Below, piece by piece: positions 48,679 to 52,577 of a DNA stretch of 64,000 nucleotides (position 1 is its first letter; every line of letters begins with the position of its first letter). The position numbers and the translations under genes were made by a program. This stretch comes from a phage: sequence record PX436236.1. The stretch is one strand, 5' to 3'. Below the pieces are notes generated by a model. It did not search any database, had not been told where the DNA came from, and worked only from the letters and a program-made list of their open reading frames with translations.

Positions 48679-49659
48679 TTATTTCAGAAGTGTAACTTCA
48701 GCGATTTCGCTCCAGTCATTTTTATCGGTGGCAATGAAGTCCGCCAGATAAAGAGCTGTACGTAATGATACGTTACGAAGACGAGATACATTAGCCTTCA
48801 TCCAGGACAGTGCTTGATAAGTCTCGGCATCAGTCAGACCACGGTTTTGCATCATATCAGTGGACAGGATAACGTCTTCAACACGGACCATAATCTCTTC
48901 GTTAGAGTGAACTCCGAGGTCTAAGTAAACTGAACGAGATACTAAAGCCTGGAGGTGTGGAGCAAGTTTAGTTCCACGCTCTAATTCACGGTCAATATCA
49001 ACGTTGGTGATGAACACGATGGTGCCTTCATACTCAAATTCTTTATCGATATTTTTATCATCAAGATAAGAACTTGAAGTGCTCCAGCACACCTTACGTT
49101 TTTCACCAGTATCCAATGCTGCTTTTAACAGGTTCAGGATATCCATATCAGAGAATACATCAACATCATCAATAAGAAGAACACTATTAGGGCCGCGGTT
49201 ATTCCAAAGCTGCTCGTAAAGACCGATTCCACTAATCTTTCCGTTGATTGATTTATATTCGATAGTTTCATTTTCGTGGGCATTCTGTAATGCTTTATCT
49301 AAAGAATACGTTTTACCAATACCTGCGGCACCAGAGATGATAAGGGAACGAATTTTACCATCGATGATTCCGTTAGTCATCATGTTCATTACTTTAAAAC
49401 GTTTGTTGATGCGGTGTTTCATTTCTTCAGAAGATTCGGTAACCACTACAGGAGCTTCAGCACCTTCGGTTTCGATATCAGATTTGAATACCCATACACC
49501 ACGTTCAACACCATCAATCTGTACGAATACCTTACCATCACCGAGGTGAGCTTCAGATTCATGAATTTTATTAGGGAACCAGGTTTTACCTGAACTCATG
49601 AACGTACCAGAGATTTCATTACCGCGATAGACACCTTTGTTGATTTTGATAGTTAACAT
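48679..49659 (-). CDS. P-loop NTPase (AAA-like), 326 aa
   Basis: Walker A GAAGIGKT and Walker B VLLIDDVD; start set at MLTIKINK with GGAGAA RBS, downstream of the promoter. Confidence 0.55.
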   Translation of the reverse strand: MLTIKINKGVYRGNEISGTFMSSGKTWFPNKIHESEAHLGDGKVFVQIDGVERGVWVFKSDIETEGAEAPVVVTESSEEMKHRINKRFKVMNMMTNGIIDGKIRSLIISGAAGIGKTYSLDKALQNAHENETIEYKSINGKISGIGLYEQLWNNRGPNSVLLIDDVDVFSDMDILNLLKAALDTGEKRKVCWSTSSSYLDDKNIDKEFEYEGTIVFITNVDIDRELERGTKLAPHLQALVSRSVYLDLGVHSNEEIMVRVEDVILSTDMMQNRGLTDAETYQALSWMKANVSRLRNVSLRTALYLADFIATDKNDWSEIAEVTLLK

Positions 49660-49685
49660 TATATTCTCCATTTCACTCAGTAGAT

Positions 49686-49725
49686 TTGATAGGTCCATAA
49701 TAACATGCTCTACGAGAGTGTAAAC
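49686..49725 (-). promoter_or_regulatory. Early-promoter cassette
   Basis: GTTTAC, 17 nt, TATTAT, GGACCTATCAAA. Confidence 0.5.
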
Positions 49726-49740
49726 TCTTTTTTGCACTAA

Positions 49741-49764
49741 ACCCAAAAAAGGCCCGAAGGCCTT
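49741..49764 (-). terminator. Terminator hairpin (AAGGCC-UUCG-GGCCUU) with U6
   Basis: Immediately after the nucleotidyltransferase stop and before the promoter. Confidence 0.55.
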
Positions 49765-49767
49765 TTA

Positions 49768-50778
49768 TCATTTATAATACGAGTTATGGTTTTCTAGGTA
49801 CACCTCTTCAACGAACTTGTCCCAGAATTTCATGTCTACCTTATCAGGCATACCATTCTTAGCGGCCCAGATAGCATTAGTTTCGACTTCATCTACAATA
49901 GCTTCAAGTTCAGCCTGCACATCTTTAAAAGCATGTAGCCCTTGTTTGATTTCAAGGATAAACGGTGCTGTACGTAAAGGATATTTGAGATCGCCGGTCA
50001 TATAGATTTCCTTCAACTGATAACCGGCACGATAAGCATGGCTCAGAGCTTTCCAATCGATACCTTCATTAGCTTCAGCCTTACGAGCACGTTCGCCATA
50101 TTCAGCATCAAGCTTATTCAGAGATTGCTTGAGCTCGATTAAAGACAAAGTAGTTTGGTACTTACGTCCTAGAACAGTATAGAACGTTTGAGGGCCTGTT
50201 TTCTCATGGTTATGGAATACCCATTCACAGAACTCATTTTCAGGGAGTCTGTGTTTGATATCTTCTACCTTAGTACGACGAAGTCTATCAGGGATTCCTT
50301 CTTGATAGTCAACCCACTGTTCAGGAATCTGGTTAACAATAGCCAGTACACCACGCAGTGCAGCTAGTCGAGAACCCTTAACACCATATTTAGAAGCTTG
50401 CTTACGGACGTACCCTAAATAGGCTTTCATGTTGGTTGTATAGAACCGTGAACGATTGTCTTGGATAAATTTCCATACACCAGGTAAATCAGATTTAACC
50501 ACCATTTCAGGTGGAGTGTGGAGCATATCCAGAGCAACGGTTTCGCCTTCAGCCGCTAGTTTAAAGAAATATTTCAGGCTGTAAAGCTCGTGGTCAACAT
50601 CATCTTTAGTGTTTTTGGAAGCAGTGTTATTCGTGTTCAGGTTGGTATGGTTCATAGCCGTACCTAACAGAATATCACGCGGATGTGGAACAAAGATTTC
50701 TTTAAAATCGACATCAGATTCTGGAGTACTTGTTCCATAAAGGTGGGAGCCAAAATATCCCTTCATAACTGTTCTCAT
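49768..50778 (-). CDS. polymerase-beta-superfamily nucleotidyltransferase-like protein, 336 aa
   Basis: N-terminal YFGSHLYGTSTPESDVDF (GS...DxD signature); AAAGAGG RBS. Confidence 0.5.
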   Translation of the reverse strand: MRTVMKGYFGSHLYGTSTPESDVDFKEIFVPHPRDILLGTAMNHTNLNTNNTASKNTKDDVDHELYSLKYFFKLAAEGETVALDMLHTPPEMVVKSDLPGVWKFIQDNRSRFYTTNMKAYLGYVRKQASKYGVKGSRLAALRGVLAIVNQIPEQWVDYQEGIPDRLRRTKVEDIKHRLPENEFCEWVFHNHEKTGPQTFYTVLGRKYQTTLSLIELKQSLNKLDAEYGERARKAEANEGIDWKALSHAYRAGYQLKEIYMTGDLKYPLRTAPFILEIKQGLHAFKDVQAELEAIVDEVETNAIWAAKNGMPDKVDMKFWDKFVEEVYLENHNSYYK

Positions 50779-51542
50779 TATTCACCTCTTTCATAGTCTT
50801 CAATAAATTGCATAATTAAACGTTGGTAGTTAGATTTGGGATATCCTAATTTACTAATATAAGTACCAAAAGCCCCACGCTTAGGCCTATTTAATTTAAC
50901 CCATAAAGAATAAAGCAAATCATAATCTTGCCAATGTTTTCCTATTCTTTGCTTTGCTTTAGAAGCATCAGATTGCCTCTTTTTAGTTTCCGGATTATTT
51001 AGAGATTTCTTAACAGCATTAGAATGCCTTTCTCTAACATCAGGGCGTTTAAATGCTTCTTTAATAGCTTTAGAAATTTTCTCTTTAACTTCAGGACGGT
51101 TTTGAGCTTCTATTTGAGCGGCAGACATTTTATCTTTTATTTCCGGTAGACTCATAGTTATAGAACGTTTATTTCTATACTCTTCAGTCTTCCATATTTC
51201 TTTCATCGCATTTGAATGAATTTCTGAAAATTTTTCTCTAACTAATTGGTATCCTCTAGAAGTTAGTTTAAGATTTCTTCCTAGAGAATCCTCACCGAAG
51301 CTATAAAACGACCACCAAGCATAAATTAGTCCAGAAGAATCAGAATGAATTCTAGCTAGAAGCCAGTGTGCTATAAAATGTTCTCTGGCTGTCAACAGAA
51401 CTAAATTATTAGGTTCATCACTCCCACCAATACATGATGGGAGTATATGATGGGACTCTGTATAAAAATTTAATTTGGATTTGTCTAATCCTCTAAGTTT
51501 ACCTCTTTGGATTAGACTATCATAAAGCTTGGTATAATTCAT
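50778..51542 (-). CDS. HNH homing endonuclease with NUMOD-like repeats, 254 aa
   Basis: ESHHILPSCIGGSDEPNNLVLLTAREH; repeated N(R/N)PE(V/T)K motifs; C-terminal LGYP..NY. Confidence 0.65.
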   Translation of the reverse strand: MNYTKLYDSLIQRGKLRGLDKSKLNFYTESHHILPSCIGGSDEPNNLVLLTAREHFIAHWLLARIHSDSSGLIYAWWSFYSFGEDSLGRNLKLTSRGYQLVREKFSEIHSNAMKEIWKTEEYRNKRSITMSLPEIKDKMSAAQIEAQNRPEVKEKISKAIKEAFKRPDVRERHSNAVKKSLNNPETKKRQSDASKAKQRIGKHWQDYDLLYSLWVKLNRPKRGAFGTYISKLGYPKSNYQRLIMQFIEDYERGE

Positions 51543-52006
51543 TATGGGTTTGTTTTGTTCTCGAAGTGGATTACCGGACAGACCTTAGATTTACGAGCTT
51601 TAATGTATTGAATAACGATGTTTTCTTTAGTTTCTCGGCCTTCACGCTCAGCTTGAATACGTTGCCATTCCTTTTCTTCTCTACGGGCATCATACCATGC
51701 GTGTAAATTCATCACACCGAATGCCAAACCAATGGATAGCGCAATAATAAGAGCTATTGAAACCAATCCTAAAACAAACCCTAGACTCAACAGAACAGGG
51801 GTACTTAATACAAAGAAATGCTCTAATACACCAACACCTGCAACAGTTAATCCAAAAAGCGTACTACCTGCAACAACAGCACAAGCAAAACAAGCCCAAA
51901 CCATTTTCCAGAAGTAAGCACATAAAGAGTGCGGTCGAGAATGACTGTCATAAAAACGGTCATGAAGTTTAGCGTGCCAAGAGTTTGCATTGATAATCAT
52001 AATCAT
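51542..52006 (-). CDS. membrane protein, 154 aa
   Basis: Several hydrophobic helices. Confidence 0.45.
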   Translation of the reverse strand: MIMIINANSWHAKLHDRFYDSHSRPHSLCAYFWKMVWACFACAVVAGSTLFGLTVAGVGVLEHFFVLSTPVLLSLGFVLGLVSIALIIALSIGLAFGVMNLHAWYDARREEKEWQRIQAEREGRETKENIVIQYIKARKSKVCPVIHFENKTNP

Positions 52007-52016
52007 AATATTTTCC

Positions 52017-52577
52017 TTAAGAGTTCATAGTTGGGATAACAGAGTTCAGATAAGAGACTAAAACTTTTAGTTCGTCTTTAGTAAATACCACTTCACTTTC
52101 ACCATCGTGTCTTTGGGTCAAGGATAACAAATCACGGCCCTGATGTTGATACACGGTTAATTCAGTATCATAATTCAGTTCTTCTTCATCACCTTCAAAG
52201 GTTTCACTAGAACGAATCACGGCATCTTGGCCAGGGACTTTCCATTCAACTTCCGGCTTGCATTCTTCCTGGAACAGTTTGAAAATACAATCAAAGAATT
52301 TATCAGAATCGCTGATGCTCAGACATTCAATACCATTTTCCAGATTAAACCCGGTTTCATTTTTATAGATATAGGCAAACATATCATCATTGATATCGAT
52401 AGGAGCACTAGCCCGACCGTTAAGATAATCGTGTCTATCTAAAACCATTAAATCATAAAGCGGTTTAATATCAGCGATAGTCAGTACGATTTTATCGTCT
52501 TCTTGTGAAAGCTCAATTGCGTTATTAACTACTTCAGCGGACAGTTCGCCAAACAATTCAGTTGTTTCAATAATCAT
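52017..52577 (-). CDS. hypothetical acidic protein, 186 aa
   Basis: ORF. Confidence 0.5.
   Translation of the reverse strand: MIIETTELFGELSAEVVNNAIELSQEDDKIVLTIADIKPLYDLMVLDRHDYLNGRASAPIDINDDMFAYIYKNETGFNLENGIECLSISDSDKFFDCIFKLFQEECKPEVEWKVPGQDAVIRSSETFEGDEEELNYDTELTVYQHQGRDLLSLTQRHDGESEVVFTKDELKVLVSYLNSVIPTMNS

Follow-up and report, generated by a model that had tools for sequence, protein, structure and literature searches.

A T4 NrdC.11 ortholog of the RlaP nucleotidyltransferase family and the RNA-repair neighbourhoods of its bacterial relatives

The window, the 64,000-nucleotide stretch of phage DNA analysed here, contains a minus-strand ORF whose 336-residue product (N-terminus MRTVMKGYFGSHLYGTSTPESDVDF; Table 1) is, judged by its sequence, almost certainly a member of the RlaP family (PF10127) of Pol-beta nucleotidyltransferases (NTases) and the ortholog of T4 NrdC.11. 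The gene is already known, being the named T4-like phage gene nrdC.11 of the RlaP family. By analogy with RlaPs characterised in vitro, NrdC.11 probably fills gaps in nuclease-damaged tRNA ahead of sealing by Pnk and Rnl1. The finding as such changes nothing: among T4-like phages nrdC.11 is a conserved accessory gene that already has a name, and accounts of its family exist from bioinformatics (2016) and from biochemistry (2025 preprint). What value remains is that of a pointer: because of the bacterial operon contexts gathered here, the NrdC.11 subfamily can be tied to RNA repair.

Family membership, orthology and predicted fold

The PF10127 RlaP profile ("RNA repair pathway DNA polymerase beta family") matches the window protein at 41.5 bits against a gathering cutoff of 23 (E 1.7e-10), and PHROG 388 ("nucleotidyltransferase") matches it at 2e-132. 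The PF10127 match is partial, with residues 8–135 of the protein falling on positions 25–143 of the 249-position model. The original prediction, made from the DNA sequence by eye, described a 336-residue protein that opens with a minimal nucleotidyltransferase signature and belongs to the Pol-beta superfamily; we find that signature, GSHLYGTSTPESDVDF, at residues 10–25, and the PF10127 score above the gathering cutoff confirms the superfamily. The same prediction held that the protein could not be placed in a specific family, and here the two profile matches show otherwise.

T4 NrdC.11 (NP_049709) is 81% identical to the window protein over 336 residues without gaps. Moreover, T4 has the order mobD–nrdC.11 (annotated "nucleotidyltransferase", 336 aa)–nrdC.10 on one strand, and the same order is found in the window. 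Given this shared order and identities of 79, 81 and 78% for the three products, the gene is a syntenic ortholog of T4 nrdC.11 and not the orphan it had been called. Homologues were found by tblastn in 1551 phage records, nearly all T4-like (Straboviridae), and an exhaustive search of 50%-identity representatives returned 3181 clusters at E ≤ 1e-3, 794 of which remain at E ≤ 1e-30; among the matches listed in that search coverage is near full length. In a separate list of 240 homologues, nearly all carry a precomputed PF10127 assignment. The closest DNA matches are the Dhakavirus genomes E33, WG01, QL01, IME08 and JS10. The gene is labelled nrdC.11 in the IME08 and JS10 records, and the NTase of WG01, a near-identical phage, shares 98% identity with the window protein. 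The dN/dS of nrdC.11 is 0.11 in comparison with phage IME08 (synonymous sites are saturated in the comparison with T4) and this value, taken with the spread of homologues across phage records and clusters, indicates that the gene is real and under purifying selection. Confident homology to a housekeeping-type enzyme with a T4 counterpart had been named at the outset as evidence against the original reading. The T4 counterpart exists, but the housekeeping character does not: nrdC.11 is an accessory gene, and T4 tolerates a deletion from nrdC.11 to mobD.3 (PMC9825161).

Many GenBank and UniRef entries name NrdC.11 and NrdC.10 orthologues "thioredoxin", and one names an NrdC.11 orthologue "putative HNH homing endonuclease". 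No thioredoxin domain match was found for NrdC.11 or NrdC.10, and the "thioredoxin" label is probably a misannotation propagated from the nrdC.x locus names.

Residue conservation was assessed in an alignment of 111 homologues that are 26–95% identical to the window protein. G10, G15, S21, D22, D62, G78, G228, R230, K243, H247 and R250 are invariant among the 111, while conservation of S11 and D24 reaches at least 90%. The catalytic set of Pol-beta NTases is intact, with G10-S11 as the hG[GS] turn, D22-x-D24 as the DxD motif and D62 as the predicted third carboxylate. When the family is compared by hhalign with six short RlaPs (266–269 aa, all with full-length PF10127 matches), G10-S11 and D22-x-D24 align with the GS and DYD of the short proteins, and D62 is paired with the conserved aspartate of the FD(L/M)NGWD motif of canonical RlaPs. 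This alignment is significant over only ~92 N-terminal columns (probability 63%, E 7e-5); from residue ~135 onward, including a three-stranded insert at 184–208, hhalign gave no significant alignment with the short RlaPs. A suboptimal and weak alignment (E 0.19) sets K243-x3-H247-x2-R250...P267 against the KxYCYxLR...PP of the short RlaPs, and we infer that the cluster of G228, R230, K243, H247 and R250 lines an NTP/RNA-binding cleft.

The structure prediction suggested alongside the original prediction gave a confident two-domain AlphaFold2 model (pLDDT 89.9, pTM 0.77), and its closest solved folds are all Pol-beta NTases. The model comprises an NTase core (residues 1–112), helices at 118–149, a less confident linker, the three-stranded sheet at 184–208 and five long helices that run to residue 335. 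G10-S11 is located at the turn between strand 1 and a helix, and D22 and D24 are located where strand 2 starts. The terminal helix spans residues 316–335; in the PfRlaP crystal structure the last helix folds back against the NTase domain. Neither the window protein nor the 111-sequence profile, searched by sequence against the PDB, gave a relevant match, in a set that apparently lacks this crystal structure.

ANT(4'), LinB and HEPN-domain proteins are among the structural neighbours of the model, and MntA and NTP_transf_2 give weak matches that take in only the GS...DxD motif. Such likenesses would be expected if NrdC.11 nucleotidylylated a protein or a small molecule, either as an MNT-type antitoxin that acts on a HEPN toxin or as an ANT-type adenylyltransferase. 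We consider this highly improbable, however, as the MntA and NTP_transf_2 matches are all sub-threshold and 18 residues long (for MntA, 13.1 bits where the cutoff is 60), no HEPN gene adjoins nrdC.11, and the characterised RlaPs left proteins unlabelled (PMC12776372).

Table 1. Features of the nrdC.11 region in window coordinates
Feature	Position	Strand	Basis
nrdC.10 ortholog, 326-aa AAA/P-loop ATPase	48679..49659	-	T4 NrdC.10 78%; PHROG 1250 6e-163; weak AAA Pfam matches
Sigma-70/T4-early-type promoter-like site TTTACA-16-TGTTATTAT (TTTACA-16-TATTAT), 5' of nrdC.10	49697..49724	-	consensus match only
Intrinsic-terminator-like hairpin AAAAGGCCTTCGGGCCTTTT followed by T-run, directly 3' of nrdC.11 stop	49747..49766	-	fold
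nrdC.11 ortholog, 336 aa, long NrdC.11-type RlaP-family (PF10127) Pol-beta nucleotidyltransferase	49768..50778	-	ORF, Pfam, PHROG, T4 identity
C-terminal invariant cluster G228, R230, K243, H247, R250; helices 213-235, 242-261	50029..50097	-	111-sequence alignment
D62 codon, predicted third catalytic carboxylate, strand 61-67	50593..50595	-	invariant in 111-sequence alignment and 11-sequence subset
NTase signature GSHLYGTSTPESDVDF, aa 10-25: hG[GS] turn G10, S11; DxD metal ligands D22, D24	50704..50751	-	alignment and model
mobD ortholog, free-standing HNH homing endonuclease, 254 aa	50778..51542	-	T4 MobD 79%; PHROG 655 "homing endonuclease" 6e-56
mobD cassette, 771 bp; in window, E33 and T4, not in IME08 or most Dhakavirus genomes	50783..51553	.	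blastn break points
Membrane-protein ORF (PHROG 944, RB69 ORF104c-like)	51542..52006	-	stop overlaps mobD ATG (TAATG)

The flanking genes mobD and nrdC.10

The gene upstream of nrdC.11 encodes MobD, with the HH...NN...H motif of the endonuclease at residues 31–55. As had been noted from the sequence, the nrdC.11 ATG (50778–50776) overlaps the TAA stop of the HNH ORF, the two having one base in common (TAATG), and a GAGGTG Shine-Dalgarno sequence for nrdC.11 is found at ~50789–50782, just 5' of the ATG. Since TAATG overlaps are found at both joints, the membrane-protein ORF, mobD and nrdC.11 form one translationally coupled run. Edgell et al. (2010, PMC2988022) list mobD as a free-standing HNH endonuclease at the nrdC.11/mobD.1 site and count it with the cassettes that lack a promoter and depend on transcripts already present, and it is plausible that MobD shares a transcript with nrdC.11. 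IME08 has no counterpart of 50783–51553 and its membrane-protein ORF directly abuts nrdC.11; most Dhakavirus records cover ~85% of a 5-kb query. Because mobD is a promoter-less cassette with presence/absence polymorphism, a shared transcript is best explained as the result of a selfish insertion.

Several further observations concern this cassette and its surroundings. Among the Dhakavirus genomes the 771-bp polymorphism is clean, and each of its junctions has a TAATG stop/start overlap. The MobD protein is 100% identical to the E33 copy, but in the E33 record the annotation at this place is a "homing endonuclease" of only 429 bp. A mobD.1 ortholog is found at 52017–52577 (minus strand) and matches Pfam T4_y05I_N (4e-36) and T4_y05I_C (3e-20), described as "y05I-like putative transcription factor". 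Motifs resembling the MotA-box middle promoter (TGCTTYA-N11-13-TANNNT) occur ten times in the window against 1.6 expected. One of the ten is inside mobD at 50917..50893 (minus strand), ~115 nt 5' of the nrdC.11 ATG. We weighed it as a MotA-type middle promoter of nrdC.11 but, as the motif is kept in E33 and not in T4, record it only as a side observation.

On the other side of nrdC.11, a terminator and a promoter had been read between it and the P-loop gene, and both signals were recovered (49766..49747 and 49724..49697). The hairpin is GC-rich with 8 bp and an MFE of -11.1 kcal/mol, and, in a sequence of this length, a modest z-score of -1.85. The promoter-like site agrees with the consensus at 10 of 12 positions and has an extended TG. 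The limits first read for the P-loop ORF also hold: PHROG 1250 fits the 326-aa form end to end, and this ATG form (49659) agrees with the T4 and E33 annotations. We rejected a longer TTG-start form (from 49746), which would extend across the promoter-like site. That longer form, 48679–49746 in the window, is the equivalent of the 1068-bp nrdC.10 given in the RefSeq record of IME08 (L001:4681-5748). Between its nrdC.10 and nrdC.11 genes E33 has ~300 bp of additional sequence that includes a 255-bp ORF (L002:3229-3483) not found in the window; because of this ORF the nrdC.10/nrdC.11 spacer is another insertion hot spot.

The arrangement of the three genes raises the question of whether NrdC.11 forms a module with MobD or with the NrdC.10 ATPase. 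The TAATG coupling of mobD and nrdC.11, the conservation of the mobD–nrdC.11–nrdC.10 order in T4 and the co-occurrence of NrdC.10 and NrdC.11 in most Tevenvirinae are all in keeping with such a module, but we give it very little credence. Most close relatives keep nrdC.11 without mobD, and the presence/absence polymorphism and selfish-cassette behaviour of mobD led us to reject a functional mobD–nrdC.11 pairing, so that the HNH adjacency has no functional meaning. A functional module of nrdC.10 and nrdC.11 was likewise rejected in view of the terminator and promoter that stand between the two genes, the unequal record counts (1312 phage records for NrdC.10 against 1551 for NrdC.11) and the loss of adjacency in distant phages and bacteria: nrdC.10 does not adjoin nrdC.11 in Shewanella phage Thanatos-2, in Sinorhizobium phage phiN3 or in any of the bacterial loci examined. 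NrdC.10 is a frequent but not obligatory neighbour of NrdC.11.

RNA-repair neighbourhoods and proposed function

As cited in PMC12776372 and PMC7824862, Burroughs and Aravind (2016) gave PF10127 the name RlaP because RlaP genes adjoin RNA ligase genes. Carruthers, Fatma and Huang (bioRxiv, December 2025, PMC12776372) have described two Pseudomonas RlaPs, PfRlaP and PaRlaP, encoded between rtcB and rtcA. They extend the 3'-OH of RNA by one or two NMPs, or dNMPs; Mn2+ or Co2+ is preferred, as is the 5' half of a nicked-tRNA mimic, and neither DNA nor protein is modified. The enzymes also gave higher aminoacylation of repaired tRNA that had lost one nucleotide (PMC12776372). The authors proposed that RlaP is an antidote to "smart" ribotoxins such as RloC (PMC12776372). 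Our search of the literature on nrdC.11, RlaP, PF10127 and RloC found no functional study of a phage NrdC.11 protein.

A scan of one genome per bacterial species, with an 11-sequence subset of the 111-sequence alignment, found 40 bacterial loci with full-length NrdC.11-like proteins (27–55% identity). RNA-repair, ligase or end-healing genes lie within 6 kb in 21 of the 40, a count that rests on Pfam scans of abutting genes and a BLAST tally. Hen1-Pnkp, or a lone Pnkp-like ligase, is found at nine loci (for example Hen1-Pnkp-RlaP in Asticcacaulis). A T4-type PNKP (HAD phosphatase and kinase) followed by RNA_lig_T4_1 and then RlaP is found at three loci, two of them in Tundrisphaera, where the PNKP is a homologue of WG01 PseT and the ligase of WG01 RnlA. 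RtcB (for example RtcB-RlaP in Methyloligella) and ATP-dependent ligases are each found near the NrdC.11-like gene at three loci, and HD_4 phosphohydrolases at six. The association extends to viruses: phage phiN3 has an RNA ligase gene on either side of its NrdC.11-like gene and a phosphohydrolase nearby, and in marine virus-like contigs a PF09414 RNA ligase is found 600 bp upstream of the NrdC.11-like gene. WG01 encodes pseT and rnlA at 136–140 kb, ~87–90 kb from nrdC.11, and no PseT or RnlA match was found within the 64-kb window; with positions taken from WG01, nrdC.11 is far from pseT/rnlA and has no operon link to them.

Two features of these neighbourhoods may be recorded separately. The Tundrisphaera sp. 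TA3 chromosome carries the PNK–Rnl1-type ligase–RlaP operon twice (L026:3963-6993 and L030:3957-6996), with proteins 87–94% identical. The HD_4 genes are immediate neighbours of the NrdC.11-like gene (L017:5558-5986, L022:6974-7507, L042:4824-5414, L020, L027 and L043), as is the "phosphohydrolase" just downstream in phiN3 (L004:5674-6108), and the HD_4 phosphohydrolase may be an end-healing partner.

At six of the 40 bacterial loci the long RlaP is followed directly downstream by a canonical short RlaP (266–269 aa, full PF10127 match). These tandem loci are L044:6001-7790, L021:6001-7774, L048:6001-7781, L024, L029 and L041; the pairs lie 3' of Hen1-Pnkp in four of the six, of RtcB in one and of RecQ in one. 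Because they occur in tandem, long and short RlaPs are probably not redundant, and the tandem arrangement suggests distinct or cooperative roles for the paralogues.

The tandem pairs bear on whether NrdC.11 has the RlaP fold but a job other than that of canonical RlaPs, such as CCA-type tRNA 3'-end repair, RNA tailing or marking, or a role as specificity or partner subunit of a repair complex. A separate job would agree with the distinct activities that the six tandem loci suggest, with the divergence of the C-terminal two thirds of NrdC.11 from the short RlaPs and with the extra beta insert at 184–208 in the AlphaFold2 model. Bacterial CCA-adding enzymes carry an HD domain, which the HD_4 phosphohydrolase neighbour at six loci and in phiN3 recalls. 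We nonetheless regard this alternative as unlikely, since the operon partners, ligases and end-healing enzymes, are those of canonical RlaPs, which would keep the pathway within RNA repair, and features specific for tRNA ends were not identified in NrdC.11.

The reading that we favour is that NrdC.11 acts as an Mn2+/Mg2+-dependent RNA 3'-terminal nucleotidyltransferase. By analogy with the two RlaPs characterised in vitro, D22, D24 and D62 would hold two metal ions, probably Mn2+, and one or two NMPs would be moved from NTPs onto the 3'-OH of broken RNA. The substrate during infection would be tRNA halves left by RloC-type anticodon nucleases of the host, which excise a nucleotide in addition to cutting, and the gap would be refilled after end healing by Pnk (pseT) and before sealing by Rnl1 (rnlA). 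On this reading MobD is a selfish homing-endonuclease cassette on the same transcript, and NrdC.10, under its own promoter, is not demonstrably linked to NrdC.11.

A bolder proposal may be put forward more tentatively, namely that the long NrdC.11-type RlaP is a functionally distinct RNA-repair enzyme and, in T4-like phages, an overlooked third component of Pnk/Rnl1 tRNA repair through which the phage survives nucleotide-excising anticodon nucleases of the RloC type; we consider this conceivable but doubtful. The bacterial loci in which the long RlaP recurs directly 5' of the short RlaP in Hen1-Pnkp or RtcB operons, and the Planctomycetes in which an NrdC.11-type RlaP completes a T4-like PNK–Rnl1 operon, are the observations behind it, and the insert unique to the long RlaP possibly confers nucleotide or substrate selectivity. 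If NrdC.11 does help to repair tRNAs with a nuclease-removed nucleotide, a gap would be closed in the oldest known RNA-repair pathway.

Comparison with known systems

T4 NrdC.11 is the closest known counterpart considered here: it has the same length as the window protein, aligns with it without gaps, and has mobD and nrdC.10 as neighbours, ordered and oriented as in the window. The two regions differ in that a membrane-protein ORF lies between mobD.1 and mobD in the window but not in T4.

Canonical RlaPs resemble the window protein in their N-terminal Pol-beta core, which carries GS, DxD and a third Asp, and in the helical C-terminal domain that the model predicts for the window protein, and like the NrdC.11 type they are associated with RNA ligases and end-healing enzymes in bacteria. 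The assayed Pseudomonas RlaPs are presumably of the short type. The window protein, by contrast, is ~70 residues longer than the short RlaPs, aligns significantly with them over ~92–128 N-terminal residues, and has no demonstrated counterpart in them for residues ~136–226, the region that contains the three-stranded sheet. Indeed, in the PF10127 similarity network T4 NrdC.11 is placed in cluster 5, separate from the canonical RlaPs, with the Pseudomonas enzymes in cluster 1a (PMC12776372).

The oligodeoxyadenylate synthase HalB of the Hailong system (PDB 9dbh/9dbj) can also be superposed on the model, over 146 of 336 residues, and this likeness would fit an NrdC.11 that makes a free oligonucleotide or nucleotide signal or decoy, for example one that jams host defence. 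Such a function is very unlikely. The likeness is limited to the generic NTase core and helices, with 12% identity and a TM-score of ~0.26, and the genomic neighbours with which NrdC.11 is associated encode RNA ligases and kinases rather than effectors or sensors. HalB is part of a host defence system that includes a membrane effector, whereas no such partner is found at nrdC.11, and a PADLOC scan gave no match for the NTase and only sub-threshold P-loop matches for NrdC.10.

The tRNA repair by Pnk and Rnl1 of T4 (Amitsur, Levitz and Kaufmann 1987, as cited in PMC12776372) is the pathway in which we propose that NrdC.11 would find its partners. No report links pseT/rnlA genetically to nrdC.11. 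The three genes lie scattered in the genomes of T4-like phages, whereas in the Planctomycete operon the homologues of PseT, RnlA and NrdC.11 are encoded side by side.
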